Both the position numbers and the translations under genes were made by a program. From IMG/VR virus record IMGVR_UViG_3300030061_003795: a stretch of DNA of 64,000 nt; one strand, given 5' to 3'. Source of the DNA: a virus. Numbering within the stretch: the first letter of the stretch is position 1; each line of letters opens with the position of its first letter. The notes beneath the pieces are model-generated. The model saw nothing but the letters and a program-made list of their open reading frames with translations. It was not told the DNA's origin and did not search any database. Positions 31,865-56,454 of this stretch are shown piece after piece.

Positions 31865-32796
31865 ATATAGTAGAACAAGTAAAATCCGTAGATGCCCCCC
31901 AAGTAGATTATTCTCAATATAAAGTTGTAAGTTACTCCCAATATCAAAATTGGGCTCAATGTCCTCACAAATGGAGACTACAGTACATAGACAAACACAA
32001 AACCCCACAAAACATACATTTTACGTTTGGGACTTCTTTACACGAAGCCATTCAAGAGTATCTCGAAAGAATGTACAACAAACCTGAACTTTTAGAGGGA
32101 TTTGATATGCAAGCATTTTTCTTAAAAACCTTCACTGAACTTTATCAAGAAAAGGTTAAATTAGAAGAAAAACACCATTCAACTCCGGAGGAACTCAAAG
32201 AATTTGCAAACGATGGTTTAAATATAATTGATTTTTTTCTAGACTATAAAGACAAATACTATCAACCCCACTATAAATTACTGGGCATAGAAATGCCTTT
32301 ACTTCACATCCCTCATCCTAAATTTCCAGAGGTAAGATTTTTCGGGAAGTTGGATGTTGTTTTATATGACCCCGAATCTGAAGTAGTAATAATAGACGAT
32401 ATAAAGACATCTACGATGGGTTGGAACAAATATCAAAAAGCAGACAAAATTAAAACAGCACAACTACCCTTATACAAAAGATATTTTCAAGAGGTATATG
32501 GTATCCCTGTAAAACACATAGATGTAAGATATACAATCGTTAAAAGAAAAGTCAACGAAAACGCTGAATATCCCGCGATGAGATCCAGAATCCAAGCATT
32601 TTCACCAGCTTCTGGAACACCTACGCTATCTAAGTTGGAATTTCATCTAAAGGAATTCATAGAGGATTGCTTTGTGGAAGGCACCGATATTTATCAACAG
32701 AAGGAATACATTAAAAACGCTAGTACTAAAAATTGTAAATGGTGTACTTTTAAGGACAAACCTGACCTTTGTGATAGAAATAAAAAGAAGAAATGA
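31861..32796 (+). CDS. Cas4/RecB-like PD-(D/E)XK exonuclease
   Basis: SYSQ...CP, FGTSLH, GKLD, DIKT, QLPLY, C-terminal CxxC-x8-C. Confidence 0.85.
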   Translation: MNIVEQVKSVDAPQVDYSQYKVVSYSQYQNWAQCPHKWRLQYIDKHKTPQNIHFTFGTSLHEAIQEYLERMYNKPELLEGFDMQAFFLKTFTELYQEKVKLEEKHHSTPEELKEFANDGLNIIDFFLDYKDKYYQPHYKLLGIEMPLLHIPHPKFPEVRFFGKLDVVLYDPESEVVIIDDIKTSTMGWNKYQKADKIKTAQLPLYKRYFQEVYGIPVKHIDVRYTIVKRKVNENAEYPAMRSRIQAFSPASGTPTLSKLEFHLKEFIEDCFVEGTDIYQQKEYIKNASTKNCKWCTFKDKPDLCDRNKKKK

Positions 32797-33239
32797 AAAA
32801 ATCCCAATTAAGACAAATTATTAAAGAGGAAATTACATCCGTTCTAAAAGAAGAATATGACCCTAACCAAGATCCCGAAAAGAAAGGATCAGAGGCATAT
32901 AAAAGGGCAGAATGGAAAGGTCAGTTTGGTTCAATGGATGGATTTGATAAGGCATATCCCCAATATTCTAAGGGAGGAAATGGAGAAACGGTTGAATCCT
33001 CAGTAAAACAAGGTTTAAATCAAATGTTTGAAAGATTAGCTGATATTGTTGATAATAAAGAGGATATTCAATCTAAAACACTAGGTGTAACTAATTATAT
33101 TAAAAGGTTAATGAGAGAATATGCTAAATATGCTAATATGGATCGTCGAGACTCAATAGAAGGTGGAAATGCTTTTTCAAAACAAGGTAAAGAAGAAGCA
33201 AGACAAGAAATTGAGAGAATATTATCAAGGGAATATTAA
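32793..33239 (+). CDS. MKKS-leader protein (candidate internal virion protein)
   Basis: MKKSQLRQIIKEEITSVLKE followed by unrelated cargo. Confidence 0.65.
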   Translation: MKKSQLRQIIKEEITSVLKEEYDPNQDPEKKGSEAYKRAEWKGQFGSMDGFDKAYPQYSKGGNGETVESSVKQGLNQMFERLADIVDNKEDIQSKTLGVTNYIKRLMREYAKYANMDRRDSIEGGNAFSKQGKEEARQEIERILSREY

Positions 33240-33240
33240 A

Positions 33241-33423
33241 ATGTCACATAAAGTTTTTATACGACACACATACATTTATAAATGTTCAAGCTGTGGTGAA
33301 GAATGGAAAATAAATGAAGCTTCTAACATAGAAAAACTTAGATGCCCCCATTGTGGTGAACATGATACTGTTGAATATGTAATGACTGATCAGAGAACAA
33401 AATTCAACCGAAAATGGAATTAA
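33241..33423 (+). CDS. Zinc-ribbon protein (start moved to ATG 33241)
   Basis: CSSC...CPHC; ATG immediately after upstream stop. Confidence 0.6.
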   Translation: MSHKVFIRHTYIYKCSSCGEEWKINEASNIEKLRCPHCGEHDTVEYVMTDQRTKFNRKWN

Positions 33424-33433
33424 ATAAAATATA

Positions 33434-33967
33434 ATGAAAAAATCTCAATTAAAGGAAATTATTAGAGCTGAGTTAAATAAAATTCTTAAAGAAGCTAAGA
33501 TATCATGCCCCGCTGCAACCCAGAATTTAGAGCTAAATACCAAAAATAGAGATGCTTCAATTAAAGCAGAATATATTAAATATGGTCCCTTAAATGTAGA
33601 TGAACCAGGAGACTACTGGGTAGACTTAGCTGAATATTGGGATACAACAGAAAAAGCAGCTAAAAAAACACTTTGTGGTAATTGTGTAGCATTTGACATT
33701 TCACCTAGAATGGAAAAATGTATGCCAGGTGAAGTATCTGATAAAGGGGATTTTGATGAAATATCACAAGAATTATTCGATTCAGATTATGAATCTCTAG
33801 ATTCAGATGAACAAGCTGAAGTTTTAGCCAATAGTGATAAATTAGGTTACTGTTGGATGCACAATTTCAAATGCCACTCAGCTAGAACTTGTAGAACATG
33901 GGCTAAAGGTGGCCCTATTACCGAAGATAGTGTATCTTATGATTGGCAAGATCGTAAAGAAGACTAA
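33434..33967 (+). CDS. MKKS-leader protein with Cys-rich metal-binding cargo
   Basis: Leader plus CGNC...GYC......C.....C..W. Confidence 0.65.
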   Translation: MKKSQLKEIIRAELNKILKEAKISCPAATQNLELNTKNRDASIKAEYIKYGPLNVDEPGDYWVDLAEYWDTTEKAAKKTLCGNCVAFDISPRMEKCMPGEVSDKGDFDEISQELFDSDYESLDSDEQAEVLANSDKLGYCWMHNFKCHSARTCRTWAKGGPITEDSVSYDWQDRKED

Positions 33968-33975
33968 AATCCTAA

Positions 33976-34968
33976 ATGAAAAAATATATATTTCCTTTAA
34001 TAATAGCACTTTCAGCACTGACTGTAAGTGCATCTGCAGCATACTACAGTGTATTTGGTCTTTCCCATCTATTTAGTGGTGCAGGTTTAGCAATTGTTAT
34101 AATGGCTTCTTCTTTAGAAGCTTCCAAACTTGTAGTAGCCTCTCTACTACACCAATATTGGAGACGCATAAATTTGTTGCTTAAAAGCTATTTAATAGTA
34201 GCACTATTGACATTGATAGTAATCACGTCAGCCGGTATTTATGGCTTTTTAACCAACGCATATCAACTAACCTCTGCCAAATCTCAAGTGGCAGACAGTC
34301 AAATAGCTATAGTCGAAAATAAGAAATCATATTTCTCCGAAAATATTGGAAGAATAGAAAGCCAAATAGGCTCCAAAAACACAAGAATCACAACTCTAAC
34401 AAATTTAAGGAGCCAACAAGAAACCAGATTAGATTCTCTATACAATAAGGGATGGTACAGTAGTGCTAGAAAAACAGAAAAACTTATAAAAGAAGCCAAC
34501 GAAGATATTAAATATCTCGAGGCTGACGTAGATACCCTTAATACACAAATAAACGCGCTAAATGATTCAATAAACAACATTAATTTAGATATATTAGACA
34601 TTCAAACGTCTAACGAAGCAGCCTCCGAGTTAGGTCCTTTAAAATACCTAGCTGAGCTTTTAGATAAGCCAATGGATGTAGTTATAAATTGGCTAATGTT
34701 AGTTTTGATTTTTGTATTTGATCCACTAGCAATAGCGTTAGTTTTAGCAGCAAATATGGCATTTGACAATGCTAGAAATAAAATAGTTGAACCTAAGAAG
34801 AAAAAACGTAAATGGTTTATATATGGAGAAAGAAAGAAAAAAACAAAAAGTGAACCTAAGATTGATCCTATTGAAGAGGAGATTAAAGAAGAACCGAAGG
34901 AAAAACCTCCAACTCCTCCCAAGAACAAGGGATCACAACCAGATGACAGATATGCCGTAAGGAAGTAG
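33976..34968 (+). CDS. Membrane protein with coiled coil
   Basis: Three N-terminal TM segments, long heptad region, IFVFDPLA TM. Confidence 0.7.
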   Translation: MKKYIFPLIIALSALTVSASAAYYSVFGLSHLFSGAGLAIVIMASSLEASKLVVASLLHQYWRRINLLLKSYLIVALLTLIVITSAGIYGFLTNAYQLTSAKSQVADSQIAIVENKKSYFSENIGRIESQIGSKNTRITTLTNLRSQQETRLDSLYNKGWYSSARKTEKLIKEANEDIKYLEADVDTLNTQINALNDSINNINLDILDIQTSNEAASELGPLKYLAELLDKPMDVVINWLMLVLIFVFDPLAIALVLAANMAFDNARNKIVEPKKKKRKWFIYGERKKKTKSEPKIDPIEEEIKEEPKEKPPTPPKNKGSQPDDRYAVRK

Positions 34969-35006
34969 AATCCGCACATACGTATATCAAACACAAAATA
35001 TATAAT

Positions 35007-35201
35007 ATGTCAAAGTTACAATTAACTTCCGTAAAAGTAGTAGATGAAATGTTTGATGAATTTAAAATTAATTCAATTAGAAACAAATTTAACCTACAAA
35101 AATTAGTAAACCGTTCAATTGATTTATATAATCAAGATGAAGAATTTAGAAAAAAAGTACACAACCACACAAAATTAGTAGAAACAAACAGTAATTTATA
35201 A
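35007..35201 (+). CDS. Small ribbon-helix-helix-like protein
   Basis: LTSVKV strand followed by two helices; heads the glycosyltransferase operon. Confidence 0.5.
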   Translation: MSKLQLTSVKVVDEMFDEFKINSIRNKFNLQKLVNRSIDLYNQDEEFRKKVHNHTKLVETNSNL

Positions 35202-35207
35202 AAGTTC

Positions 35208-36686
35208 ATGAAAAAAGGTTATATTAAAAAAGACCAACGAAAGAAAATTCTTTTGTTGGGAGATGATTTAAGGACTCCATCCGGAGTAGGAACACAATCC
35301 AAAAATTTAGTTTTAAGTACTTGTCACCATTACAATTGGGTGCAGATAGCAGGGTCTTTAAAACATCCTGACAAGGGTAAAAGATTAGAGCTCAACGAAT
35401 CAATAACTAAAGGTACGGGAGTAGAAGACCCAAGCGTAGTTTTATATCCAAACGATGGATATGGTGATCATATGATTATGAGGCAAATTATGAACATTGA
35501 AAAACCTGATGCCATTATATTCTTTACAGATCCAAGATATTATATTTGGTTATTTCAGATGGAAAATGAAATTCGTCAAAAAATTCCAATGATTTATTAC
35601 AACATTTGGGACGACACTCCATATCCATTTTGGAATAGGCCTTTCTATAGAAGTTGTGATCAATTACTTTGTATTTCGAAACAAACTAAGAATTTAGTAG
35701 AAAATGTTTTAAGAGACTATCCAAAAGAAGATTGGCAAACTAAATATCTACCTCACGGAATAAATCCAAAAGATTTTTACGAAATAGATGAAAAGAAACA
35801 CCCTGAAGCTTTTTTAGATTTACAAAACACTAAAAAAGAAATGTTTGGAGAAGATGAACCAGAGTTTGTTGTGTTCTTTAATTCTAGAAATATTAGAAGA
35901 AAAAACATTCCAGACATCATTTTAGCATGGAGAATGTTTACTGACTTTTTACCTAAGGAAGAAGCCAAAAAATGTAAATTAATTTTACACACGGCAGTGT
36001 CTGATCCAAATGGAACTGATTTAGCAGCTGTGATAGATAGTTTTTGTGATCCTGAACAAAATCCCGTGATAATCAGCGGTAAACAAACGACTGAAGCGCG
36101 ACTAAATACGTTATATAATCTATCCGATTGTCATATGTTTATGACAGATAATGAAGGATGGGGGCTAGGTTTAACCGAATCTTTAATGGTTGGAAGAATG
36201 ATTATAGCACCAGTTCAAGGAGGAATGCAAGATCAAATGCGTTTTGAAGATGAAGAAGGAGATTGGATTAAATTTTCTGAAGTAACCCCAACTAACGCAG
36301 ATAAAACCTATCTAAGACATGGAGAATGGGCAGAGCCAATGTTTCCATCAACAAGAAGCATAAAAGGTTCACCTCAAACACCATATATTTTTGCTTCCCA
36401 AGTATCTGTTGATACAGCGGTACAATCATTAGCTAAAGTTTATGCTTTAGGTAAAGAAGAAAGAATGAGAAGAGGAGCTAAAGGTAGAGAATTCGCAATG
36501 GAAGAACTAAGTCTAGAAAAACTAGGTAGCAATTTAATAGGTCACGTTGACGAATGCATTGAAAAGTTTGAACCTAAACCGAAATACACGGTCTTGAATA
36601 CGGATATCAAATTTAACAACTACCAGAAATTCCCATTAAAATTACAACAAGAAACAATAAATAAAGTTAAAGAATTATTAGTATGA
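35208..36686 (+). CDS. Glycosyltransferase, GT-B (GT4-like)
   Basis: SGVG, PHGI, RNIRRKN, EGWGLGLTE. Confidence 0.85.
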   Translation: MKKGYIKKDQRKKILLLGDDLRTPSGVGTQSKNLVLSTCHHYNWVQIAGSLKHPDKGKRLELNESITKGTGVEDPSVVLYPNDGYGDHMIMRQIMNIEKPDAIIFFTDPRYYIWLFQMENEIRQKIPMIYYNIWDDTPYPFWNRPFYRSCDQLLCISKQTKNLVENVLRDYPKEDWQTKYLPHGINPKDFYEIDEKKHPEAFLDLQNTKKEMFGEDEPEFVVFFNSRNIRRKNIPDIILAWRMFTDFLPKEEAKKCKLILHTAVSDPNGTDLAAVIDSFCDPEQNPVIISGKQTTEARLNTLYNLSDCHMFMTDNEGWGLGLTESLMVGRMIIAPVQGGMQDQMRFEDEEGDWIKFSEVTPTNADKTYLRHGEWAEPMFPSTRSIKGSPQTPYIFASQVSVDTAVQSLAKVYALGKEERMRRGAKGREFAMEELSLEKLGSNLIGHVDECIEKFEPKPKYTVLNTDIKFNNYQKFPLKLQQETINKVKELLV

Positions 36687-38017
36687 AGCCATTATTAGTT
36701 ATATCAGCGCCTGTAGACACTTATTCGGGATATGGGGCAAGAAGTAGAGGAATAGCAAAAGCTATAATTGAACTCGACAAATATGAGGTTAAAATTCTAT
36801 CCCAAATGTGGGGTGCTACACCTTGGGGTTTTATAAAAGACCACGAAGAAGAATGGGGATTTCTTTCACAACATTTTGTAAATCAAACATCAAACCAACA
36901 AAAACCTGATGTTTGGATACAAATCACAGTACCTAATGAATTCCAACCAATTGGAAGTTACAACATAGGAATCACAGCAGGCATTGAAGCAACACAATGT
37001 TCACCACCTTGGATTGAGGGCTGTAATAGAATGAATATGGTACTTCTATCATCTAAGTTTTCGAAGCAAGTATTCCAACAATCTGCCTACAGTATTAATA
37101 ACCCTCAAGGGCAAGTTACAAAACATTTAAAAATCGAAAGACCCTTAGATGTAATTTTTGAAGGTGTAGATTTAAACATTTACAATCAAGAATCTGACGT
37201 CAAAATGTTAGACATTAAAGAGTCATTTGCGTTTTTAGTAGCAGGACATTGGTTGAAAGGTAAATATGGAGAAGATAGAAAAAACATTGGTAAAACAATT
37301 AAACTCTTCTTTGAAACCTTTAAAAATATGGAAAACCCACCTGCCATGGTTCTTAAAACAGGATCAGATGGTAGTATAAGTGAGCAAGAAAACCTTATAG
37401 AAAAAATCAATGCTATACGAAGCATGGTAAAAGGAAAACTCCCACAATTATATTTGGTTTCCGGAAATCTCTCCGATACGGAGGTAAATCAATTATACAG
37501 AGACCCAAAAATTAAAGCGATGGTGAGTTTTACAAAAGGAGAAGGATTTGGAAGACCGTTAGCCGAATTTGCTTTAACAAAGAAACCAATTATAGTTTCC
37601 AACTGGTCGGGACATACAGATTTTATTAAACCTGAATTTGCTGTTTTATTAGGTGGAAACCTTAAAAATATCCATGATTCAGCTGCGTGGGAAAATGTAT
37701 TGATGAAAGAAGCTAAGTGGTTTGATATAGATGAAGAAGTAGCTATGAAAGCTATGAAAGATGTACATAAAAATTACAAAGATTATATTAAAAAATCTCG
37801 TAAATCGAGACAATATATAAAAGATAATTTCTCTTATGAGAAAATGAAGGAAAAGTTGAGTGAAATTTTAGAAGAAAATGTTAAAATAGAAGCCCAATTA
37901 AGATTACCAAATATGGAAGCTCCTAAACTTCAATTACCAAAATTAAAAAAAGTTGGAGAACCTAAAACAGAACTTCCAAAACTTAAATTACCTAAACTTA
38001 AAAAAGTAACAACATGA
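36683..38017 (+). CDS. Glycosyltransferase, GT-B (GT4-like) with LPKLK tail
   Basis: SGYG, DRKN, EGFGRPLAE, WSGH.DF. Confidence 0.85.
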   Translation: MKPLLVISAPVDTYSGYGARSRGIAKAIIELDKYEVKILSQMWGATPWGFIKDHEEEWGFLSQHFVNQTSNQQKPDVWIQITVPNEFQPIGSYNIGITAGIEATQCSPPWIEGCNRMNMVLLSSKFSKQVFQQSAYSINNPQGQVTKHLKIERPLDVIFEGVDLNIYNQESDVKMLDIKESFAFLVAGHWLKGKYGEDRKNIGKTIKLFFETFKNMENPPAMVLKTGSDGSISEQENLIEKINAIRSMVKGKLPQLYLVSGNLSDTEVNQLYRDPKIKAMVSFTKGEGFGRPLAEFALTKKPIIVSNWSGHTDFIKPEFAVLLGGNLKNIHDSAAWENVLMKEAKWFDIDEEVAMKAMKDVHKNYKDYIKKSRKSRQYIKDNFSYEKMKEKLSEILEENVKIEAQLRLPNMEAPKLQLPKLKKVGEPKTELPKLKLPKLKKVTT

Positions 38018-38517
38018 AAGAAGACGTAAAAAGTAGAGTTTTACCAAAAGATAACTTAACAGTTTGCCCTGTATGTGGTTCAGATGCATGCTATCACACA
38101 GAAGCTAAGGAAAATGACTTCGAAAGCTATATGTGTTTTACTTGTGGATATTCAACATCTACTCAAATGAAAGAAGGTGAAGAATTAGTAACTCAAACAA
38201 GGGAAACAGCTGCTGAACTTATAAAAGATTTAGAAGTAATTAAGGAGGGATTTGTATGGTATCCTTCAGTAATGAATTTACCAGAGCAAGGAATTGTATT
38301 CCCTGATGGAACCTCAAAAGAAGACTGGAAATGGGCTTCTATGAAAGCGGTTTTAGTTACAGAAGAAGAAAAGGAAAAATACCCAATTCCTAATAAGAAA
38401 GGGGAATTTTACACACACAGAATCGACAATACTACGATGAAGCATTTTGACAAACTTTGTTATATGGATGCTTTAGAAGAGATTGGAATGTTTGAAAAAC
38501 AAGAAGAAGAGTCCTAG
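38014..38517 (+). CDS. Zinc-ribbon hypothetical protein
   Basis: CPVC...CFTCG. Confidence 0.6.
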   Translation: MKEDVKSRVLPKDNLTVCPVCGSDACYHTEAKENDFESYMCFTCGYSTSTQMKEGEELVTQTRETAAELIKDLEVIKEGFVWYPSVMNLPEQGIVFPDGTSKEDWKWASMKAVLVTEEEKEKYPIPNKKGEFYTHRIDNTTMKHFDKLCYMDALEEIGMFEKQEEES

Positions 38518-38535
38518 ATTTTAAAATTTAAAATT

Positions 38536-38802
38536 ATGGAAACAATAATAGGAACGGTTATCGGATCTGTTGTAACACTTTTAGTGGCATGGTATGTTGC
38601 TAGGAACAAAAGCAAATTTGATAGTCTAACATTACAAGTCACAAATGTTGAAGGTACCATTCATCAACGTTGTGATGACGATTTAAGAATGGTACAAAGT
38701 CAAACGGAATGTCTTCACCGTGAATTAGAAAAGAGAGACCGAGAGTTAGATTCTAGACTCGATAAATTGGAATCAAAATTAATGAAACAAATAAATAAAT
38801 AA
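38536..38802 (+). CDS. Small membrane-anchored coiled-coil protein
   Basis: N-terminal TM, DSRLDKLE heptads. Confidence 0.6.
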   Translation: METIIGTVIGSVVTLLVAWYVARNKSKFDSLTLQVTNVEGTIHQRCDDDLRMVQSQTECLHRELEKRDRELDSRLDKLESKLMKQINK

Positions 38803-38839
38803 TTAACCCGTCTAGGGCTCTTTTTTAAAATTAAAAGTT

Positions 38840-39100
38840 ATGACAAGATTAACAGTACACGTAGAAAATGCACCTTTTGTTGAAAGGGAAAGAAAATCAC
38901 TGGGAAAAAACGCCCAAGGGGTTGAAATATTCAAACCCAAAAGATCAAAATGTATAGTAAACACTTTATCATTTGGAGGATTAAAAAACGAAAGAGAAGT
39001 CAACGAAAAATTAACTTACGTAAAATCTAAACACAGAATTGCCAAATGGACTAAAGGAGCCAAAAAAGGTAAAGAAATGATTTATACTTCATTTCAATGA
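38840..39100 (+). CDS. Basic hypothetical protein
   Basis: 86-aa Lys-rich ORF, ATGA overlap with next gene. Confidence 0.55.
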   Translation: MTRLTVHVENAPFVERERKSLGKNAQGVEIFKPKRSKCIVNTLSFGGLKNEREVNEKLTYVKSKHRIAKWTKGAKKGKEMIYTSFQ

Positions 39101-39723
39101 GAATCTCTTACGCAATTCCCGTCTGTAACGAACACACTGAATTAGAGAAACTCTTAAAGTTCTTACTCCCCTTAAAACGTCCAGAAGACGAAATAGTAGT
39201 ACAAGTAGACAGTAAAAATGTAACCCCTGAAGTTACAGCATTAACTAATACTTGGGGAGACAGTAATGACATAAAAGTTATATCTTTCGAATTTAATGGG
39301 AATTTTGCAGACCTTAAAAACAACCTAAAAAACAACTGTACAGGGGATTATATTTTTCAAATAGACGCAGATGAAATACCACACTCATATTTAATTGGTT
39401 TACTTCCAACTCTCTTCAGACACAACCCAGATGTAGATTTATTTTTAGTTCCAAGAATTAATATTGTAAATGGATTGACAGAAGAGCATATTCAAAAATG
39501 GGAATGGCAAGTCAATGAAAAGGGTTGGGTGAATTTTCCAGATGCTCAAATGAGAATTATTCGCAATGCTCCTCACATTCAGTGGGCAAGTAAAGTGCAT
39601 GAAGTTATAATGGGATTTAAACAATACGTTATTCTACCATTAGAAGAAAAATTCACACTATATCACGAAAAGAGTATAGGAAAACAAGAACTACAAAATA
39701 ACTTTTACGATAGTTTGGCTTAG
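39097..39723 (+). CDS. Glycosyltransferase family 2
   Basis: ISYAIPVCNE, IDADE, VHE. Confidence 0.88.
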   Translation: MRISYAIPVCNEHTELEKLLKFLLPLKRPEDEIVVQVDSKNVTPEVTALTNTWGDSNDIKVISFEFNGNFADLKNNLKNNCTGDYIFQIDADEIPHSYLIGLLPTLFRHNPDVDLFLVPRINIVNGLTEEHIQKWEWQVNEKGWVNFPDAQMRIIRNAPHIQWASKVHEVIMGFKQYVILPLEEKFTLYHEKSIGKQELQNNFYDSLA

Positions 39724-39744
39724 TCAAAAAAATTCAATACATTA
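39714..39744 (+). promoter_or_regulatory. Promoter TTTGG-N19-TACATTA
   Basis: Recurrent motif; heads the sugar-synthesis cassette. Confidence 0.7.
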
Positions 39745-39756
39745 AAACAAAAAATT

Positions 39757-39897
39757 ATGGATCCAATATTAAATCAATTAATGCAGTTAGTAGCTGCAAA
39801 TCCTAATGATGCCACTTTAGGTAAGGCAGTTAGAGAATTAGTTAGAAGAAAATTAAACGAGGGAAGCAATCCGGGAAAACAATTGTTGAAAGGGTGA
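39757..39897 (+). CDS. 46-aa hypothetical protein (absent from ORF track)
   Basis: MDPILNQLMQLVAANPNDATLGKAVRELVRRKLNEGSNPGKQLLKG; GTGA overlap with next gene. Confidence 0.55.
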   Translation: MDPILNQLMQLVAANPNDATLGKAVRELVRRKLNEGSNPGKQLLKG

Positions 39898-40187
39898 ATG
39901 TGTATGTGGATATAGATGAGACTATATGTTTCTATGATGAAGAAAGAGATTACAAACTAGCAAAACCTATACAAAAAAATATTAATAAGATTAATAAATT
40001 ATATGATGAAGGTCACCAAATAACTTATTGGACTGCTAGGGGTACTGTTACTAAAATTGATTGGTTCAAAACAACAGAAAACCAATTAAAAAAATGGGGG
40101 TGTAAATACCATCGATTAAGTACAGGTAAAAAACCTGCTTATGATTTATTAATTTGTGATAAAACCAAAAGAATAGAAGAGATATGA
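39894..40187 (+). CDS. Capless HAD phosphatase (sugar-phosphate phosphatase)
   Basis: DIDET, WTAR, K, CDK. Confidence 0.8.
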   Translation: MNVYVDIDETICFYDEERDYKLAKPIQKNINKINKLYDEGHQITYWTARGTVTKIDWFKTTENQLKKWGCKYHRLSTGKKPAYDLLICDKTKRIEEI

Positions 40188-47274: not shown

Positions 47275-47897
47275 GTTTTAACAAAATAACAGAGTTTGAA
47301 AATAAAATAGCAAAGTTTTTTGGATCACCTTATGCAGTAGCAGTAGATTGCTGTACACATGGAGTTGAATTGTGTTTAAGATATAAAAATGCAAGGAAAA
47401 TTACAGTACCAAAACGAACATATATTTCAATTCCTTTTTTAGCAAATAAGTTAAATATAGACTTGGAATGGAAAGATGAAATTTGGACTAATTATTATTA
47501 TTTAACTGACAATATAATTGATGCCGCTGTATTATGGAAAAAAAATAGTTACATACCAAATACTTTTATGAATATATCATTTCAATTCAAAAAACATTTG
47601 GCTCTTGGTAGAGGGGGTGTTATACTAACAGATAGTAAAAATGCAGCCATGGAATTAAAAAAGATGTCATATGACGGAAGACATCCAGACATTCCTTGGA
47701 GAGAACAAAATATCAACATTGTAGGATATCATTACTATATGACACCTGAAACAGCTGAGTTAGGTTTAAAAAAACTAGATAAAGCCATCGACACTCTACC
47801 TAAACAATGGGTAGTAGAAGATTGGCCAGATTTAACACAAATGGATGTATTTACTCCCAAAATTGAGGGGATAGATCCTTATTTACAAACAAGATAA
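47271..47897 (+). CDS. Compact DegT/DnrJ-family PLP sugar aminotransferase
   Basis: FE..IA.FFG..YAVAV..CT, IDAA, SFQFKKHL...GG. Confidence 0.8.
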   Translation: MSFNKITEFENKIAKFFGSPYAVAVDCCTHGVELCLRYKNARKITVPKRTYISIPFLANKLNIDLEWKDEIWTNYYYLTDNIIDAAVLWKKNSYIPNTFMNISFQFKKHLALGRGGVILTDSKNAAMELKKMSYDGRHPDIPWREQNINIVGYHYYMTPETAELGLKKLDKAIDTLPKQWVVEDWPDLTQMDVFTPKIEGIDPYLQTR

Positions 47898-47899
47898 CT

Positions 47900-48874
47900 A
47901 TGAAAAAAGCATTCATCACAGGAATTGGGGGGCAAGACGGAAGTTACTTAGCTGAGTATTTACTAGAGCTGGGGTATGAAGTACATGGAATAGTAAGAAG
48001 AAATTCATCCCCAGAAAACCAAGATTTACGACTATTTAATATAGAAAAAAAGATTCACACTTATTATGGTGATTTACTAGATCAAGGGGGATTAGAAAGA
48101 TTATTAGACAAAATCCAACCTGATGAAATATACAATATAGCAGCACAGTCTCATGTAAGAATTAGTTTTGATATACCTCAATTTACAGTTCAAACTAACG
48201 CTATTGGGGTATTGAATATGTTAGAGGCTTATAGAAGGAGCTGCCCTCAAGCTAAATTTTATCAAGCAAGTTCTTCAGAAATGTTTGGGCTATCCGTTGA
48301 AGATGATAATTTTCAAAGAGAAACCACAATAATGAATCCTGTATCCCCATATGGCTGTTCTAAAGTATTTGGTTATAATATTGTAAGAAACTATAGACGA
48401 GCTTATGGATTACATGCTACTAATGGTATTTTATTTAACCATGAGTCCCCAAGAAGGGGTTCTAATTTTGTAACTAATAAAGTAGCTAAAGCCGCTGCCA
48501 GAATTAAATTGGGGCTACAAGATAAACTAGAATTAGGTAATATGGATTCTTATAGGGATTGGGGTCATTCATATGATTATGTAAGAGCAATGTATTTGAT
48601 GATGCAACATAATAAACCTGGAGATTGGGTAGTATCAACTATGGAAACACACTCAGTAAGAGAAATGTGCGAATTAGTATTTAATCATTTAGGATTAAAT
48701 TATGAAGATTATGTAATTCAAAACCCACAATTCCTAAGGCCAGAAGAACTACCTTACTTAAAAGGAGATTCTACTAAAATTAGAACAGAATTAGGTTGGA
48801 AGCCAACATATACTTTTAGTGAAATAATGATTGAAATGGTAAATTTTTGGTTAAAAAAATATTCAAATGTGTAG
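47900..48874 (+). CDS. gmd: GDP-mannose 4,6-dehydratase
   Basis: ITGIGGQDGSYLAE, AQSHV, QASSSE, SPYGCSK, NHESPRRG, RDWGH. Confidence 0.95.
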   Translation: MKKAFITGIGGQDGSYLAEYLLELGYEVHGIVRRNSSPENQDLRLFNIEKKIHTYYGDLLDQGGLERLLDKIQPDEIYNIAAQSHVRISFDIPQFTVQTNAIGVLNMLEAYRRSCPQAKFYQASSSEMFGLSVEDDNFQRETTIMNPVSPYGCSKVFGYNIVRNYRRAYGLHATNGILFNHESPRRGSNFVTNKVAKAAARIKLGLQDKLELGNMDSYRDWGHSYDYVRAMYLMMQHNKPGDWVVSTMETHSVREMCELVFNHLGLNYEDYVIQNPQFLRPEELPYLKGDSTKIRTELGWKPTYTFSEIMIEMVNFWLKKYSNV

Positions 48875-50171
48875 TATAGGAATAACAAACGTAAATCAAT
48901 CACTGCTAGATTCTAATAGGTTTTCACAAAAAAGAGGCCCTGATAGTACTAATATATTAACTTATAACAAAATTCAATTTTTACATAATCTTCTTCATTT
49001 AACGGGTGAAAAAACATCCCAACCCTTTATAGAAAATGATATTGCAGTTGTTTTTAATGGTGAAATTTATAATTATTTAGAATTAGGAAATTATAAAACC
49101 GATGGAGAATGTTTAATAGATTTATATCAAAAACATGGTGATGAATTTATTAAACTTTTAGACGGAGAATTTGCTATATGTTTAATTGATTTTAATCTAA
49201 ATACAATATTGCTATCAACAGACACATTTGCGTGTAAACCTTTATGGTATGAATTTAAAGATGAAGATTTCTGTATAGGATCTTATAACAGTCAACTTAC
49301 TCAACTAGAATTTAATCAAGGGCAAAAACTATATGCAAATAAAACCAAAGTTTTCAATTTAACAACTTTTGACTTAATAAAAGAATTTGAAAATTTTACA
49401 TTTGATATTATACAACATAAAAATCACTACAACGATTGGATAAAAGCATTTGAGAATAGTATAAAGAAAAGAACACAAAATCTACAGTATGGTGCTTTTT
49501 TGGGATTAAGTTCAGGTTATGATAGTGGAGCAATAGCATGTGAATTAATAAACCAAAATATTCCTTTTAAATCTTACACAATTATAGGCCCTGAAGATAA
49601 ATCAACAATAGAAAGAAGAACAAAGTTAATAAAAGATTACGAAATAATAGAACTTACTAAGGTTGAATATGATCTAAATAAAGAAGAATTAGATAACTGT
49701 TGTGAAAATTTTACATATAAGGGTTATAATATTAAAGGTGATAAAGCTTCCTTTGGATTAGCAGCTATTTGTTCCAGAGCTAATAAAGAAAATAGAAGAA
49801 TATATTTTTCTGGGCAGGGGGCAGATGAAATTATAAGTGATTATGGGTTTAATAGTCATAAAATATATAATCATAGTCAATTTGGGGGTTTATTTCCAAA
49901 TAATTTAAAAGGGTTTTGGCCGTGGGATAGTTTTTGGGATGGCACTCAAATAAAATATTTAAATAAAGAAGAATATATAGCTGGCCATTATGGTATAGAG
50001 ACTAGATATCCTTTTTTAGATAAACAATTAGTCCAAGAATTTTTATGGTTATCACCAGAACTTAAAAATAAAAAATATAAATCAGCAATAAATGAATATC
50101 TTACTCTAAATAAATTCCCCTTTTCCGAGGGTCAAAAAATAGGGTTTAATACACTAAAAAACATAAAATAA
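48867..50171 (+). CDS. Asparagine-synthetase-like glutamine amidotransferase
   Basis: N-terminal Cys2, RGPD, FNGEIYN, LSSGYDS, SGQGADE, RYPFLD. Confidence 0.88.
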   Translation: MCSIGITNVNQSLLDSNRFSQKRGPDSTNILTYNKIQFLHNLLHLTGEKTSQPFIENDIAVVFNGEIYNYLELGNYKTDGECLIDLYQKHGDEFIKLLDGEFAICLIDFNLNTILLSTDTFACKPLWYEFKDEDFCIGSYNSQLTQLEFNQGQKLYANKTKVFNLTTFDLIKEFENFTFDIIQHKNHYNDWIKAFENSIKKRTQNLQYGAFLGLSSGYDSGAIACELINQNIPFKSYTIIGPEDKSTIERRTKLIKDYEIIELTKVEYDLNKEELDNCCENFTYKGYNIKGDKASFGLAAICSRANKENRRIYFSGQGADEIISDYGFNSHKIYNHSQFGGLFPNNLKGFWPWDSFWDGTQIKYLNKEEYIAGHYGIETRYPFLDKQLVQEFLWLSPELKNKKYKSAINEYLTLNKFPFSEGQKIGFNTLKNIK

Positions 50172-50172
50172 C

Positions 50173-51120
50173 ATGAAAACTAAATTTGCAATAGGATGTT
50201 TAATACAGTGGTATGAAGTAGATATCATTGAAGAATATATTGAAACCCTAAAAGAAGCCATAGATGAATATGAGGGTGAAGTCATAGTCGATTTTACTAT
50301 TTGTATGAATCAAGATTTAGAAAAATGTATTAATGAGGAACAATTAAAAATCTGTAGGACTAATATAGGCCTTAAAATAATGGACATTAGGTTCAAAACG
50401 ATCATTACAGATGAATTAGTTACAATAGCAGATTATAGAAGAAAATTTAATGAAAAATATTGTGAGCTAGCTGATGTGTTGATGTGGGGAGAGTCAGATA
50501 TGTTGGTTCCTAAACAAACTTTTAACATATTAAATAATCTACACCAAATGTCACTTCAAAACAACAATCCCAAATATTTATCCTTTTTTGGTACTTGTAA
50601 AATGTGGGATAAAAGTTGGGAGATATTAGAACATCCTGACTTTACAGTTAAACCCCATATTGATAATGATTATGATAATTGGTGGTCATTAAAATATACA
50701 ATGTCTAAAGAGGAAATGAATAAAATTAATGAAAAAACTGAAGATTTAGAGGTATTAATAGCACCACAACATAAATTTAATGGGTGTGGGTTAGTTATTT
50801 CTTCTGAAGTAATTAAATCAGGAGTTAATATACCCCGTTCAGTGTTTTTTGTACATGAAGATACTTCATTTATGTTAATGACTCAAAAGATACTAGGTAA
50901 TATACCCCAATATATAATTAAAAATATTTTACTAGTACATAATAGAAACCACCCAAATAAAAGAATGTATATAGATGGTGAAAGGAAAGATGGTACTATG
51001 AATGAAAAAAGAAGAAGTAATGATTGGTATACTAAAGCAAACAAAATGAGTGAGCAAAATTGTTATAATATATTTAACCCTAGTTATAAATCATTTAAAT
51101 GGGGGGACGTATGGAAGTAG
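50173..51120 (+). CDS. Putative GT-A glycosyltransferase
   Basis: WGESD (DxD-like) and HED motifs; context. Confidence 0.5.
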   Translation: MKTKFAIGCLIQWYEVDIIEEYIETLKEAIDEYEGEVIVDFTICMNQDLEKCINEEQLKICRTNIGLKIMDIRFKTIITDELVTIADYRRKFNEKYCELADVLMWGESDMLVPKQTFNILNNLHQMSLQNNNPKYLSFFGTCKMWDKSWEILEHPDFTVKPHIDNDYDNWWSLKYTMSKEEMNKINEKTEDLEVLIAPQHKFNGCGLVISSEVIKSGVNIPRSVFFVHEDTSFMLMTQKILGNIPQYIIKNILLVHNRNHPNKRMYIDGERKDGTMNEKRRSNDWYTKANKMSEQNCYNIFNPSYKSFKWGDVWK

Positions 51121-52055
51121 CATTTTTCACAGAAGGAGGATACTCAGGAAAACAACCTCGCAACCACCCTAACGCAAGAACTGAAATTGCGTGGATGATT
51201 GCATTAAATGCTAATCACTTCAATATTCATAGCTATATCAACCAATCTGAAAAACAATATGATTTAGGTATTCTTATTCTACCAAAAAAGAATTTAGATA
51301 AGTTAATGGTTGGAGACTTTATGGGTCAAATGAAAAATTTGTGTAAAAAAGTAGCTATAATGCAAGAAGGACCAAACTGGAATTGGCAAGACTATTCAAT
51401 GGAAGAACAAATATGGTACTTTAATACATTATGTAGTGTTGACTTTTTATTTTGCCATAATTATAGTGATCAAAAATATTATGAGGGACTAACAGGCCAA
51501 ACTACGTACGTTATGCCAAGTTTAATGATTGAAGATTCAATCCAAACACTATTAAATTATGAGCAATCTGGGGTAATGATTGGTGGTAATATGACAAGTT
51601 GGTATGGTGGTTTTGATTCTATGATGGTTGCACAGGAGTTTGGAGAAAGAATATATGCACCATCAATGGGGAGAAAAATTGAAAGAGAAGAAGAATTAGA
51701 TATAACTCACTTACCATATATGAATTGGCAACGATGGATTTGTGAGTTAAGAAAAGCTAAGTATGGTGTACACTTAATGAGAACCCATGCGGCGGGTACA
51801 TTTGCATTAAATTGTGCTTATTTAGGCATTCCTTGTATAGGATATGAGGGATTAGACACCCAGGAATCATGTCACCCAGATTTAACAGTTAAAGTAGGGG
51901 ACTTGAAGAAAGCAAGAAAGATTGCAGAAAGGCTTAGGTTAGATGAAGATTTTTACTTATACTGTAGTAATCTTTCAAAAACTAAATATAAAGAACACTT
52001 CTCAGAAGAAGTTTATAAAAGTAAAATTGACAAAATACTAAAAACTGAATTATGA
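51111..52055 (+). CDS. Putative GT-B glycosyltransferase (start likely ATG 51111)
   Basis: AGTFALNCAYLGIPCIG resembles the GT-B C-terminal E.A..G.P motif. Confidence 0.55.
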   Translation: MEVAFFTEGGYSGKQPRNHPNARTEIAWMIALNANHFNIHSYINQSEKQYDLGILILPKKNLDKLMVGDFMGQMKNLCKKVAIMQEGPNWNWQDYSMEEQIWYFNTLCSVDFLFCHNYSDQKYYEGLTGQTTYVMPSLMIEDSIQTLLNYEQSGVMIGGNMTSWYGGFDSMMVAQEFGERIYAPSMGRKIEREEELDITHLPYMNWQRWICELRKAKYGVHLMRTHAAGTFALNCAYLGIPCIGYEGLDTQESCHPDLTVKVGDLKKARKIAERLRLDEDFYLYCSNLSKTKYKEHFSEEVYKSKIDKILKTEL

Positions 52056-52954
52056 AAATACTAGTAACAGGCGGAGCAGGGTTTGTTGGAACAAACCTTA
52101 TAAAAAGACTCCTTAGAGAAGGACACGAAGTCACTTCAATAGACAACTATTCAACTGGATTAAAAACAAATCATCAAGAAGGGTGTCACTATAAAGAAGC
52201 CAACATTTATGACTTTGATTGGAGGGGGGAATTTTATGACATTGTATTTCATATGGCGGCCATAGCTCGAATTCAACCATCTTTTGAAAACCCAATAGAA
52301 TATTTTAATACAAATGCAAATGGTACAATGCAGTTAGCTGAACACTGTGCCAAAAATAACATACCAATAATTTATGCTGGCTCTTCTTCCCACCATTCAG
52401 GTAAATATAAAAACCCATATACTTTTAGTAAAGATATAGGGGAGGAAGTGTTAGAACTTTTTAAAAGATGCTTTAATTTAAGATATTCGATTGCTAGATT
52501 CTATAATGTATATGGCCCATATCAATTAACTGAAGGCGGTTATACAACATTAATCGGTAGATGGATAAATAATATTGAAAAAGGATTACCATGCGAAATA
52601 TACGGTGATGGAGAGCAGCGTAGAGATTTTACACACGTAGATGATATAGTAGATGCGCTTGTTAGAATAATGGAAAAACAACAATATTTTATTGACTCTA
52701 ATATCCAACCTGGTATATTTGAATTGGGTAGGGGTGAAAATATCTCAGTAAACGAAGTAGCTAAAATGTTTGAGATTGAACCAACTTACAAGGATGCTAA
52801 ACCAGGAGAAGCAAGACACACTTTATGTAAGTCCCACGCAGCGCAGAAACTTTTAAATTGGATACCACAAAAAGATTTATTACATTACATACAAACATTT
52901 AAAAATGAAAATAAGCTTTATAATACCAAGCCGGAACAATCTCAAATATCTTGA
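52052..52954 (+). CDS. NAD-dependent epimerase/dehydratase (extended SDR)
   Basis: TGGAGFVG, YTFSK, RFYNVYGP, RDFTHVDD. Confidence 0.92.
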   Translation: MKILVTGGAGFVGTNLIKRLLREGHEVTSIDNYSTGLKTNHQEGCHYKEANIYDFDWRGEFYDIVFHMAAIARIQPSFENPIEYFNTNANGTMQLAEHCAKNNIPIIYAGSSSHHSGKYKNPYTFSKDIGEEVLELFKRCFNLRYSIARFYNVYGPYQLTEGGYTTLIGRWINNIEKGLPCEIYGDGEQRRDFTHVDDIVDALVRIMEKQQYFIDSNIQPGIFELGRGENISVNEVAKMFEIEPTYKDAKPGEARHTLCKSHAAQKLLNWIPQKDLLHYIQTFKNENKLYNTKPEQSQIS

Positions 52955-54116
52955 ATGGGCTTACAACTCAATAAGAAAAAATCAAGGAGAACATGAAGTA
53001 GAAGTATGTGTTGCAGACGATTTTTCTGAGGATGGAACTGATGAATGGTGTGAAAAAACATCCCAATCAGACTCTAATTTCAAATGGATAAGAAACGAAG
53101 GACCTGAGCGTCAAGGATTAGTAATCTTAAATGATAAATTAATCAATGAGGTAGCTACAAATGATATTTGCATGATTTACCATGCAGATATGTACTTGTG
53201 TCCCGGCGCTTTAGATTCAGTTGAAACATATCTTGGAGGGGGTTCTAGAATAGTATCACTCACTAGAATTGAACCACCATTACACCCACCAGGACCAGAA
53301 AAAGTATTGCAAGATTTTGGAATCGAACCTGAGGAATTTAATGAAACTTCTTTATTACAATATATAAAAGAAAGAGTAGAACAATTTGATGAAGTCCCTA
53401 CTACTGAAGGTATATTTGCTCCTTGGGCTTTTTATAAAAAAGACTTTCAACAAATAGGAGGGCACGATACTCTATTTGCTCCCCAAAGTAAAGAAGATAG
53501 TGATATATTTAATCGCTTTCACTTAAATGGAATAAAGTTTATTCAAACGTGGGAAGGATTTGTTTATCATATGACGAGCAGGGGTAGTAGATTCAATCCA
53601 TATTCAGGAGGTGCTCCAGGTCAAAACTCAGAAGAATGGCTACACACTACAACTAAAAATATGAGAAATTTCATTCGTAAGTGGGGGACTCCAGTCAATC
53701 ACGACAAATCTCTTAAACCTATTGTTTCTCCAAAATACAACATTGGATATAGAATTGAAAACTGTAACCCTCAACTACTAGAAGCACTTGAGCCGTGGTG
53801 TGACCATATTTACACAGACCTTGAAGACTTTGTTTTATATCAAATGAAAGAACAACCAAATACCTCATTCGATTTAAATAAAAGACTACATGGTATTACA
53901 GGCAACGATAGATACGATTACGATGACATTTTAGTTGAAATTAATGGTAATATTTTCACACATCAAGACTTCCAAATCCTCCAACAACTACCAGAAATTT
54001 TACAAGACAGTGGAGAAGAAGGTAGTTTTGAACTTGGAAATCTTAAAATAACAATTAGTAGTTTAGAAACATATGAAAAAGAGTTGATTGTGTGTAGTTC
54101 GCAATATGTATTGTAA
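52905..54116 (+). CDS. Glycosyltransferase family 2
   Basis: ISFIIPSRN, DDFSEDGT, HADM, IGGHD..F...EDSD. Confidence 0.88.
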   Translation: MKISFIIPSRNNLKYLEWAYNSIRKNQGEHEVEVCVADDFSEDGTDEWCEKTSQSDSNFKWIRNEGPERQGLVILNDKLINEVATNDICMIYHADMYLCPGALDSVETYLGGGSRIVSLTRIEPPLHPPGPEKVLQDFGIEPEEFNETSLLQYIKERVEQFDEVPTTEGIFAPWAFYKKDFQQIGGHDTLFAPQSKEDSDIFNRFHLNGIKFIQTWEGFVYHMTSRGSRFNPYSGGAPGQNSEEWLHTTTKNMRNFIRKWGTPVNHDKSLKPIVSPKYNIGYRIENCNPQLLEALEPWCDHIYTDLEDFVLYQMKEQPNTSFDLNKRLHGITGNDRYDYDDILVEINGNIFTHQDFQILQQLPEILQDSGEEGSFELGNLKITISSLETYEKELIVCSSQYVL

Positions 54117-54126
54117 ACAGCAATAC

Positions 54127-54363
54127 ATGAAATTTATAAGCGATATTTTCACCGAAGACAAAAGAGACGACAAATTTTCATCCAAAAAAACATTAGGAAT
54201 AATTTCAGGCATACTTGTGTGTTTGGCTTTTTTGGGAGATGGTTTTCATTGGTTTACAGTAAACGAAAGTTTATTTAATTCAATGTTAATATTTTCAGCA
54301 ACTATGTTAGGAGTATCAACCCTTAAAGCATTTGCTAAAGGAGATAAAATAGAAAAAAAATAA
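54127..54363 (+). CDS. Two-TM small membrane protein (holin-like)
   Basis: FSSKK followed by two hydrophobic helices and charged tail; start moved to ATG 54127. Confidence 0.5.
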   Translation: MKFISDIFTEDKRDDKFSSKKTLGIISGILVCLAFLGDGFHWFTVNESLFNSMLIFSATMLGVSTLKAFAKGDKIEKK

Positions 54364-54364
54364 A

Positions 54365-55942
54365 ATGAAAAAATCAGAATTAAGACAAATTATTAGAGAA
54401 GCCATAAACAGTATGGCTGAGCCTACAGGATATTATACAGATCAAGGTCAAAAAACAGCGGAAAATCCTCAAGATATAGAATATTGGTTAAAGCAAATTG
54501 AAGGAATGTCTTTGGGCGATGCTAGAGACTACTTAGGAATTGAAGTTGGATTACCTAGTTCTATGACCCATAAAGTCCTACAACAACACAATACTGATAT
54601 TATAGATACATTTGACGATTTTTCAGATGAAGAAAACCCATTCCCAAGTAGTAGAAAAGGCATAGACCAATTAGACAAAGATGATCTATACGAAAACACT
54701 ATAAAAAAATCAGAATTAAAAAGACTCATCAAAGAATCATATTTAAGAGAAATTAGCTCCACTGAAGCTAATGCTCAATTTATGGAACTGGTAGAATACC
54801 AAAAACAAATTCTAAATATTTTAAAAGAATTAAAAAATGGAGCTGATCTTAATGCCTCAGTCGGAGAAATAAAAAAAGAAGTTAAAAAAACTCTTACTAA
54901 AGTTAAAAACTTAAAACAGATAAAAAGTCTAAAAGAAGGATTTAGAGACCCTGAAGACAATTATGGTTTTGATGAATCTCCAGAATATGAAATTGATGAC
55001 TATGAAATAGGTGATCAAGTAGTAGTAACAAGAGGGAGTTCTAACGATCTAGGTATAGTCACAAAAGTAGATATCCCTAACAACTTAGTTTATGTTAGTT
55101 GGAATCCAAATCGACCATCTGATGAAAGTCAAGCATTTAACCCCGGCGAAGTTGCATTCCCAGGATCTCCAGGTAGGTTAAGAGAAGAAGACGAAGAAGA
55201 CATAGAAGACGACTTTGATTCAGCAGAGCCAGCCGTTGCTCAAGATGGAGAATCTAAAAATCAAGAAAGTGCTCCAAGAAAAAGAATCAACTTCGAAAAC
55301 CGAGAACTAGAAATGTTAGTTGACGTTAACAAAAACGCAACCAAAAAGGGTATCAAAATACAATTCCTATCAGACGATGAACTTTCAAAAGAAGAAAGAA
55401 CCAAACTCGTATCTTCACTACAAACATACTTAGATGAAGGTTTAGCTAAATTCGTAAAAGGAGCCAAACTTAACGTTGATTCAGATCAAGATGTTCCAAA
55501 CAAAACTAAAACAGTAGGTTTTACAATTAAAATTGGAGATGTGTTTGGATTAGTTTCTAAAGTATTTGCTAATAGAGGTGACGATGAAGAAGGTGGGGAA
55601 GAAGTTGAAGCAGAAGAGACTGAAACAGAAGAAACAGAAGAATTACAAGAGTTAAGAAGACAAATAAGAGGATTCCTTAAAGAAGAACAAATGGAAATGT
55701 CTTTTAAAACTTTTGAGGACGTAAAAAATGATATGAGTGAATTTCCAGGATTTCAAGAAATAGTTGGAGGTTTTTCACTCCCAATAGAGGGTATAATGGG
55801 AGATGCATTAGGAGGATCTTACGAATTTACAGAAAATCCTGATCAAACTGTTAAAGTAACAAAGGTCGATGGAGAAGGAAATGAGTTATCATCAAAATCC
55901 CATCCAATTGACATTATTGTTGGATTCTTAGAAAAATATTAA
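54365..55942 (+). CDS. Multi-module MKKS-leader polyprotein-like protein
   Basis: N-terminal leader, internal leader copy at 54701, several LxE junctions, acidic linkers. Confidence 0.7.
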   Translation: MKKSELRQIIREAINSMAEPTGYYTDQGQKTAENPQDIEYWLKQIEGMSLGDARDYLGIEVGLPSSMTHKVLQQHNTDIIDTFDDFSDEENPFPSSRKGIDQLDKDDLYENTIKKSELKRLIKESYLREISSTEANAQFMELVEYQKQILNILKELKNGADLNASVGEIKKEVKKTLTKVKNLKQIKSLKEGFRDPEDNYGFDESPEYEIDDYEIGDQVVVTRGSSNDLGIVTKVDIPNNLVYVSWNPNRPSDESQAFNPGEVAFPGSPGRLREEDEEDIEDDFDSAEPAVAQDGESKNQESAPRKRINFENRELEMLVDVNKNATKKGIKIQFLSDDELSKEERTKLVSSLQTYLDEGLAKFVKGAKLNVDSDQDVPNKTKTVGFTIKIGDVFGLVSKVFANRGDDEEGGEEVEAEETETEETEELQELRRQIRGFLKEEQMEMSFKTFEDVKNDMSEFPGFQEIVGGFSLPIEGIMGDALGGSYEFTENPDQTVKVTKVDGEGNELSSKSHPIDIIVGFLEKY

Positions 55943-55944
55943 AA

Positions 55945-56202
55945 ATGAAAAAATCACAATTAAGACAAATCATCAAAGAGGAAATCACATCCGTTTTACA
56001 TGAAGACAGAAGCCAAATAAAAGGGGCCATGGAAGAAATGTTAGGTGATTTTTTGCAATTTGTTGTAATCGTAGAAGATGGACTAGAAGATAAATACGAT
56101 AATCCCGAGGATCTAGTGCTATTGAAGAAAAAGAAAGAAGCAATGCTCAATGCAATGGATAACTATGTTGAGTTTCTAGTTGCAATTGATGAAAAAACAT
56201 AA
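55945..56202 (+). CDS. MKKS-leader protein
   Basis: MKKSQLRQIIKEEITSVLHE. Confidence 0.7.
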   Translation: MKKSQLRQIIKEEITSVLHEDRSQIKGAMEEMLGDFLQFVVIVEDGLEDKYDNPEDLVLLKKKKEAMLNAMDNYVEFLVAIDEKT

Positions 56203-56205
56203 AAA

Positions 56206-56454
56206 ATGAAAAAATCCGAATTAAGACAAATCATCAAAGAGGAAATTAAAAAAACTATCAAAGAAAAGTTTGATTGGGATGAGCATCTTAACAAAGGAAA
56301 AGAAACCAAAGTTGAGGATTTAAAACAAGAATTTAACCAACTCATCAAAAAACACACCCCTACATTTGATGCAGTTATACCAGGGGATGGAGAATATAAA
56401 ATTGTTGATATTTTAAGGGCAGAACTAGACAAATATGAAAGGGTGCCCTATTAA
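56206..56454 (+). CDS. MKKS-leader protein
   Basis: MKKSELRQIIKEEIKKTIKE. Confidence 0.7.
   Translation: MKKSELRQIIKEEIKKTIKEKFDWDEHLNKGKETKVEDLKQEFNQLIKKHTPTFDAVIPGDGEYKIVDILRAELDKYERVPY

Follow-up and report, generated by a model that had tools for sequence, protein, structure and literature searches.

A stretch of 64,000 nucleotides from a virus (IMG/VR record IMGVR_UViG_3300030061_003795; the whole stretch is referred to here as the window) contains five open reading frames (ORFs) on the plus strand that open with one 20-residue leader. The ORFs are named by their first positions: 32793, 33434, 54365, 55945, and 56206. The leader is an amphipathic helix with the consensus M-K-K-S-(E/Q)-L-(K/R)-x-I-I-(K/R)-E...L-x-E, and we propose that it is a propeptide that targets proteins to the capsid, more precisely to the prohead core, in a large group of marine T4-like myoviruses. 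The probability of this reading is estimated at about 0.6. The tag is modular and virus-specific, is swapped between cargo proteins at a fixed Glu, occurs on genes of the head module, and, judged by the near-complete records, is confined to phages that encode a prohead protease of the Peptidase_S77 family. A modular tag that is cut off is supported by the motif [LIVMF]-x-E at residue 20, by the exchange of leaders at the same Glu, and by the L-x-E junctions of a polyprotein. The positions of the elements are listed in Table 1.

Table 1 Leaders, cargos, polyprotein elements, and candidate promoter sites. Positions refer to the window unless a contig is named; aa, amino acids; HMM, hidden Markov model.
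Feature	Position	Strand	Description
Leader copy 1	32793..32852	+	20 codons, ends L-K-E; ORF 32793-33239, 148 aa; HMM score 39.5
Cargo 1	32853..33239	+	two modules, aa 21-62 and 63-148, shuffled separately in homologues
Leader copy 2	33434..33493	+	ends L-K-E at residue 20; ORF 33434-33967, 177 aa
Cargo 2	33494..33967	+	conserved Cys/His-rich domain, very large marine phage family
Leader copy 3	54365..54421	+	19 codons, ends M-A-E; HMM score 34.3
Leader-tagged five-module ORF, 525 aa	54365..55942	+	A 54365-54700, B 54701-54937, C 54938-55186, D 55187-55627, E 55628-55939
Internal relic leader 1	54701..54751	+	aa 113-129, I-K-K-S-E-L-K... ending L-R-E; ATA replaces start codon
SH3-like module	54910..55195	+	286 bp, 95% nucleotide identity with IMG/VR contig L121
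Internal relic leader 2	55628..55684	+	aa 422-440, ends L-K-E; directly before module E
Leader copy 4	55945..56004	+	ends L-H-E; ORF 55945-56202, 85 aa; HMM score 43.2
Leader copy 5	56206..56265	+	ends I-K-E; ORF 56206-56454, 82 aa; HMM score 35.5
ATATTTATAA sites	window 598-607; L288 4970, 8747; L241 7085, 9972, 11893, 13841, 19188; L121 1637		candidate late promoter

The leader genes of the window are arranged as a tandem trio at 54365-56454 and a pair at 32793-33967. A degenerate DNA pattern, back-translated from M-K-K-S-[QE]-L-[KR]-x-I-I-[KR]-E, matches the window four times, against 0.00 matches expected from 100 shuffles. A six-frame peptide regular expression and a leader HMM also recovered the copy at 33434, the fifth, and an internal one at 54701, and together they found no copy in the window beyond these six. 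An original prediction, made from the letters of the window, had described one leader on five ORFs with unrelated cargos. All five ORFs and their N-termini are as described there, and the five cargos have no mutual similarity at blastp E ≤ 1e-3. A recount also agrees with its figure of seven differences in 60 nucleotides between the leaders of 32793 and 55945, with all changes in the first 18 codons synonymous. The two leaders are identical at 53 of 60 nucleotides; codons 1-18 account for five of the differences, all synonymous, and codon 19, where Lys is replaced by His, for the other two. The (L/I)-x-E at residue 20, which that prediction gave for four of the leaders, holds for these four; in the leader of 54365, M-A-E ends at residue 19. 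P0207, a stand-alone homologue of the start of 54365, has L-K-E at residue 20.

The degenerate pattern matches more than 120 stretches of IMG/VR, as a lower bound, and three stretches in 596 Gb of prokaryote genomes, all of which are on contigs of metagenome-assembled genomes. The matches listed from IMG/VR yield 150 ORFs, corresponding to 129 unique leader proteins and at least 89 cargo clusters. No Pfam family was assigned to any of the 89 clusters, and the few PHROGs matches of the cargos are all to families of unknown function. One protein matched the Pfam family RelB_like_antitoxin weakly (E 6e-4, below the cut-off), and this assignment was dropped. Positions 13-20 of the leader were left free by the search pattern, and conservation is nevertheless found there, at Glu 13, Ile/Val 14, and the hydrophobic residues 17 and 18. 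Glu is present at residue 20 in 53 of the 89 cargo families. The end point of the motif [LIVMF]-x-E is residue 20 in 52 of the 89 families and residues 16-19 in 32 more, and each later position accounts for one to five families. No column beyond residue 20 is conserved.

The common start of the five proteins and the tandem placement of their genes would also be explained if they were diverged paralogues of one ancestral gene, of which the N-terminus alone was conserved. This explanation is extremely improbable, because the 89 cargo clusters have no detectable similarity, modules of the cargos occur as separate ORFs, and a cargo with 91% identity carries a wholly different leader (see below). 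A second explanation places the selection at the level of the mRNA. The leader codons and upstream regions are very A-rich, and A-rich 5′ coding sequence could be selected for translation initiation in a Bacteroidota-type host that does not use Shine-Dalgarno sequences. The outcomes that the original prediction had named as contradicting it include a leader that occurs equally on non-virion enzymes, which would cover a leader generic to all genes. However, the conservation spans 20 codons, has a hydrophobic periodicity, and is maintained with many synonymous codons. The leader is kept in contigs of 26-48% GC, including those of 40-48%, and a domain scan and the leader HMM found it on none of the window's enzyme genes with a known domain. 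Selection at the mRNA level is therefore very improbable as the origin of the leader.

The exchange of leaders on related cargos separates the two parts of the proteins at the Glu. The family of the 33434 cargo comprises 1657 homologues and has 48 invariant columns, including seven Cys; the conserved Cys and His residues suggest metal binding, and only that. In homologue P0005, the cargo is identical to that of 33434 at 139 of 153 positions (91%) and the leader at 4 of 20 (20%). A wholly different leader, M-x-N-F-D-L-(K/R)-K-Y-L...L-Y-E, is found on relatives whose cargo is 86-91% identical, and the break between leader and cargo is at the Glu (...L-K-E/A-K-I-S-C versus ...L-Y-E/A-A-M-A-C). 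Thirty-four distinct leader types occur on this cargo. The motif [LIVM]-x-E lies exactly five residues before the invariant Cys in 10 of them, and at -5 to -7 from the Cys in 18. The AlphaFold2 model of the 33434 protein (pLDDT 71.5) contains one helix formed by residues 3-22, followed by a break before the cargo, and the model has no fold match in the PDB at E ≤ 0.001. Distant relatives in six phage records are labeled HiPIP; this identity found no support for the cargo of 33434, which has no Pfam match. The cargo of 32793 has been exchanged as well. In P0188, it follows a different, second-dialect leader joined at the same Glu, and in P0162-P0172 its C-terminal module (87-95% identity) is located behind a leader of the F-D-L-K-K-Y-L type and other N-terminal modules.

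The leader dialects separate partly by genome. The F-(D/N)-L-(K/R)-K-(Y/F)-L dialect occurs four times in record G001 and six times in G012, and is absent from G008 and G011, in which leaders of the M-K-K-S type are found. At least 12 leader-type ORFs are present in G008, and G012 also bears one related leader. The gene directly after the protease gene carries the second dialect in G001 and, in degenerate form, in Flavobacterium phage immuto. Five or six ORFs near both ends of the terminally repeated genome G008 (146370-148444 and 399) carry a third variant, x-T-E-F-R-K-L-I-R-E-E-V-R-K-V-L-K-E.

The 525-aa protein encoded by ORF 54365 is composed of five modules, the borders of which were derived from shorter homologues: A (residues 1-112; P0207), B (113-191; P0245 and P0211), C (192-274; P0232 and P0233), D (275-421; P0200 and P0205), and E (422-525; P0212 and P0244). 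Each of the modules exists elsewhere as a separate ORF, and leader-tagged forms are found for four of the five. Judged by these homologues, the ORF is a fusion of leader-cargo units. The protein contains 11 L-x-E sites, and all four of its module junctions are of this type (E129, E191, E274, and E440). Two relics of the leader are present inside the protein. Aligned position by position, the first corresponds to the N-terminal leader of P0245 and the second to the intact leaders of P0212 and P0244, with the junction Glu conserved in the second. Both relics have decayed, and each has kept its terminal L-x-E. Such a pattern would be expected if one targeting signal suffices for the protein but every joint needs to be cut. 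Module C is SH3-like, and its counterpart in contig L121 belongs to a 313-aa leader protein, the gene of which precedes those for the large terminase and T4-type portal at a distance of two genes. The window and L121 otherwise share nothing, and the nucleotide identity of this module on otherwise unrelated contigs points to a recent exchange.

These exchanges raise the question of whether the main role of the conserved 60 nucleotides is that of a recombination handle for the shuffling of small gene cassettes, with the peptide as a passenger that has no part in targeting. The near-identity of the leader DNA of 32793 and 55945 on unrelated cargos would fit such a role, as would the tandem arrays of leader genes (at least two exact pattern matches in 21 of 120 loci, and six within 2 kb in L061) and the evident shuffling of cargos and modules. 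However, the peptide is preserved over synonymous codon changes and over the whole range of GC contents given above, and the 286 bp recently exchanged with L121 lie within a cargo, with no leader DNA at either end. A handle also leaves the fixed L-x-E and the link to the head module unexplained. It is unlikely to be the main role of the leader, and it is compatible with a targeting propeptide as a secondary effect. The original prediction had offered the handle as an additional role of the conserved DNA; the swapping of leaders and modules agrees with this, but the L121 exchange, the only recent one that could be dated, is not bounded by leaders and does not.

The leader occurs in phages with a T4-type head module, and some of the leader genes are part of it. 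A T4-type prohead protease (Peptidase_S77) is encoded in each of the eight leader-bearing records with a completeness of 88% or more. Among 15 AT-rich fragments that are 11-44% complete, the protease was found in eight, versus about three expected from completeness by our own arithmetic. Four leader ORFs of the 292-kb record G006 are located on the two sides of the S77 gene, no more than 3 kb from it. One head module contains genes whose products match Portal_T4 (1e-81), Peptidase_S77 (4e-29), and Gp23 (3e-73), together with the gene of a conserved 130-aa leader protein, which is positioned between the protease gene and a scaffold-like gene, in the interval from the S77 gene to the gp23-type capsid gene. 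In more than 20 relatives, a leader gene has a fixed place ahead of those for the large terminase and T4-type portal, from which it is two or three genes away. Gene 199 of phage immuto, which has a degenerate leader, lies between the portal and protease genes. The motif ATATTTATAA, a candidate late promoter of this phage group, is located 15-30 nucleotides upstream of portal, tail-tube, and other structural genes as well as of the leader gene upstream of the terminase gene. In L241 and L121, this syntenic leader gene is preceded by ATATTTATAA in the same way as the portal and tail-tube genes.

Two further features of these gene neighborhoods were observed. A gene for ribosomal protein S21 is present in the head module (L023, 8812-9108; Microcystis phage Mel-JY01, L393, 5198-5425), beside the genes for the protease and the 130-aa leader protein; this arrangement was seen in uncultured contigs of 40-48% GC and in Mel-JY01. 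In L030 (7056) and L019/L330, a 136-aa leader protein is encoded directly after the tail sheath gene, at the place where the phage of the window has its tail tube gene.

Phage T4 has few proteins with a capsid targeting sequence (CTS), among them the anti-restriction protein IPI and the host-takeover enzyme Alt. The internal-protein loci of T-even phages are polymorphic, and the tagged genes are often in tandem. The T4 prohead core proteins gp22, gp67, and gp68 are cleaved at several L/I-x-E sites. A check of the tandem T4 genes ipII and ipIII confirmed an identical leader of 30 nucleotides, and a similar helix is present at the N-terminus of the scaffold protein gp22. IPIII needs no more than its first 10 residues to be loaded into the prohead core, and gp21 cuts after L/I-X-E (PMC9026906, PMC3012670). 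Asp at the last position of the leader stops the cutting but not the loading (PMC9026906). The internal proteins of T-even phages are diverse and share only the leader (PMC9026906, PMC3012670).

The leader described here resembles the CTS of IPI, IPII, IPIII, and Alt, which is removed by gp21, in several respects. Both are short N-terminal peptides on otherwise unrelated small proteins, both end in L/I-x-E with the cargo following directly, and the genes are often in tandem. The phages that bear the leader also have head genes of the gp20, gp21, and gp23 types. The leader is most likely an enlarged, swappable version of this load-then-clip tag. In contrast to the CTS, it has 20 rather than 10 residues and stands in front of dozens of protein families instead of three or four cargos. 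Several dialects are exchanged on one cargo, and a polyprotein has L-x-E joints. The hosts are probably marine Bacteroidota. By analogy with T4, the leader helix would dock its protein onto the scaffolding core during prohead assembly. Peptidase_S77, a member of the gp21 family, would then cleave the terminal L-x-E behind its Glu, perhaps together with a second site after the I-K-E at residue 12, and so release the cargo within the head. For the 525-aa protein, the single intact leader would serve for loading, and cuts at the four L-x-E junctions would subsequently divide it into its modules.

Two other groups of head proteins provide points of comparison. The 525-aa ORF resembles the T4 core proteins gp22, gp67, and gp68 in that its product is acidic, helical, and leader-bearing, with many L-x-E sites; in relatives, leader genes adjoin the protease gene as T4 genes 67 and 68 do. 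Unlike the core protein genes, those of the window are located outside any head module, and the modules include a folded SH3-like domain. Jumbo phages related to phiKZ and SPN3US also have many head-internal proteins that are cut after Glu by a diverged gp21-type protease, with redundant propeptide sites (PMC9026906). Their propeptides, however, are long and have no single shared short leader, and their cleavage motif has Ser or Ala at P3 (S/A-X-E), whereas the present leader has Leu or Ile as in T4.

The original prediction had interpreted the leader as a modular address tag of the T4 type. Its virus-specific occurrence, its restriction to S77 phages, the L/I-x-E at the boundary, the leader swaps, and the genes beside the protease agree with that interpretation. 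The agreement does not extend to the sequence itself: comparison with the T4 CTS M-K-T-Y-Q-E-F-I-A-E gives no demonstrable homology, and the two share only the outline of an M-K start, a hydrophobic pair, and then x-E. This is one of several observations that weigh against a capsid targeting propeptide. Peptidase_S77 is present in every T4-like phage, so its co-occurrence with the leader at the genome level cannot discriminate between the possible functions. Neither an S77 protease gene nor a scaffold gene is present in the window or in the 8 kb upstream, and the presence of both in this phage is extrapolated from relatives with 50-51% identical sheath or PolB. The closest complete relatives by PolB, G001 and G004, have the S77 protease and lack the M-K-K-S leader, in place of which another leader type is in use. 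The motif ATATTTATAA does not occur upstream of the window's leader genes, where sites with one mismatch are at chance level, and these genes sit among replication and glycan genes. In the 33434 cargo family, [LIVM]-x-E is wholly absent from 8 of the 34 leader types, so the rule of a terminal motif is not universal. The same cargo is highly conserved and occurs also in phage records of 33-55 kb, so its N-terminal extension could serve the protein itself. A literature search found no virion proteome of any leader-bearing phage.

It is possible that the helix is a lineage-specific docking tag for another machine or site, such as the phage chaperonin, a modifying enzyme, a membrane, or an oligomer, and that L-x-E merely reflects the composition of the helix. 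The window encodes GroEL, its leader genes have the neighbors just described, and an N-terminal extension of 13-27 residues is present on the 33434 cargo in every case, also in the eight leader types that lack L-x-E. Judged by the leaders and the places of their genes, a docking tag is nonetheless rather doubtful, since it does not account for the Glu that is fixed at the junction of leader and cargo across unrelated leaders, for the survival of L-x-E at the polyprotein junctions where the remaining leader has decayed, or for the leader genes embedded in the head module beside the protease gene.

If the leader is a capsid targeting propeptide, a broader proposal can be made tentatively. The N-terminal address dialects of marine T4-like phages, including immuto, may be interchangeable signals, each of which has the motif of the prohead protease at its end. 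With them, the phages would load into the head a very large and rapidly reshuffled repertoire of small proteins, and of polyproteins with protease-cleaved joints, to be delivered along with the DNA. In that case, the whole candidate repertoire of injected proteins of uncultured phages could be read from sequence via the leader. If the leader works as in T4, dozens to hundreds of unknown protein families of abundant ocean phages would become candidates for injection, and they would offer many counter-defence and takeover functions. The protease motif would then act as a joint of universal use, through which cargo modules are swapped and fused. Being able to predict the virion content of uncultured phages from a sequence tag would be useful. 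No account of such leaders in marine phages was found in literature searches. Searches of cultured phages with window positions 54000-57000, the 32793 protein, the 130-aa family, and the 20-aa leader gave no match, although the low-complexity filter of BLAST may hide short leaders. A generalised leader pattern had no match in phages immuto and Mel-JY01. Direct reading of the immuto genome revealed degenerate M-K-K-S leaders on genes 176, 177, and 199. Phage immuto and Flavobacterium sp. LMO8 form a cultured pair in which the function of the leader could be tested directly.

The window is AT-rich (31.6% GC), and every long ORF is on the plus strand. It encodes PolB, a DnaB-like helicase, a UvsX-like recombinase, ribonucleotide reductase, and glycosyltransferases in addition to GroEL. 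Between leader genes 32793 and 33434, there is a small ORF (33163-33423) that has two C-x-x-C pairs, resembling a zinc ribbon, and no leader. The Tara Oceans contig CERJ01077277.1 is 100% identical to the start of the window and reaches 8.1 kb further upstream, where it encodes a 951-aa tail sheath protein, a tail tube protein, and a tape-measure-like protein. Tail sheaths of T4-like phages are related to this one; among cultured phages, Mel-JY01 and immuto have the nearest, and relatives in IMG/VR are at most 54% identical. By PolB, the nearest complete record is G001 (51% identity), and by sheath it is G011 (50% identity). Both encode Peptidase_S77, and in G011 the protease gene is about 12 kb upstream of the sheath gene. 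A protein of the structural module (L288, 1-1323), upstream of the window start, has a C-terminal end that looks like a sorting domain of the Bacteroidota type IX secretion system, which fits a Bacteroidota host.

Two minor observations concern other leader-bearing genomes and the terminase. The N-terminus of the large terminase, M-S-D-L-K-K-V-I-R-Q-E-Y... (L241, 8398; L121, 3328; G011, 159045), is weakly similar to the leader core (HMM scores 5-9), probably by chance. The S77 matches of G027 (the record of L056) and G034 (the record of L077) each contain two in-frame TGA codons, and the leader ORFs of L077 are just 36-38 aa long under translation table 11; the phages of G027 and G034 may recode TGA.

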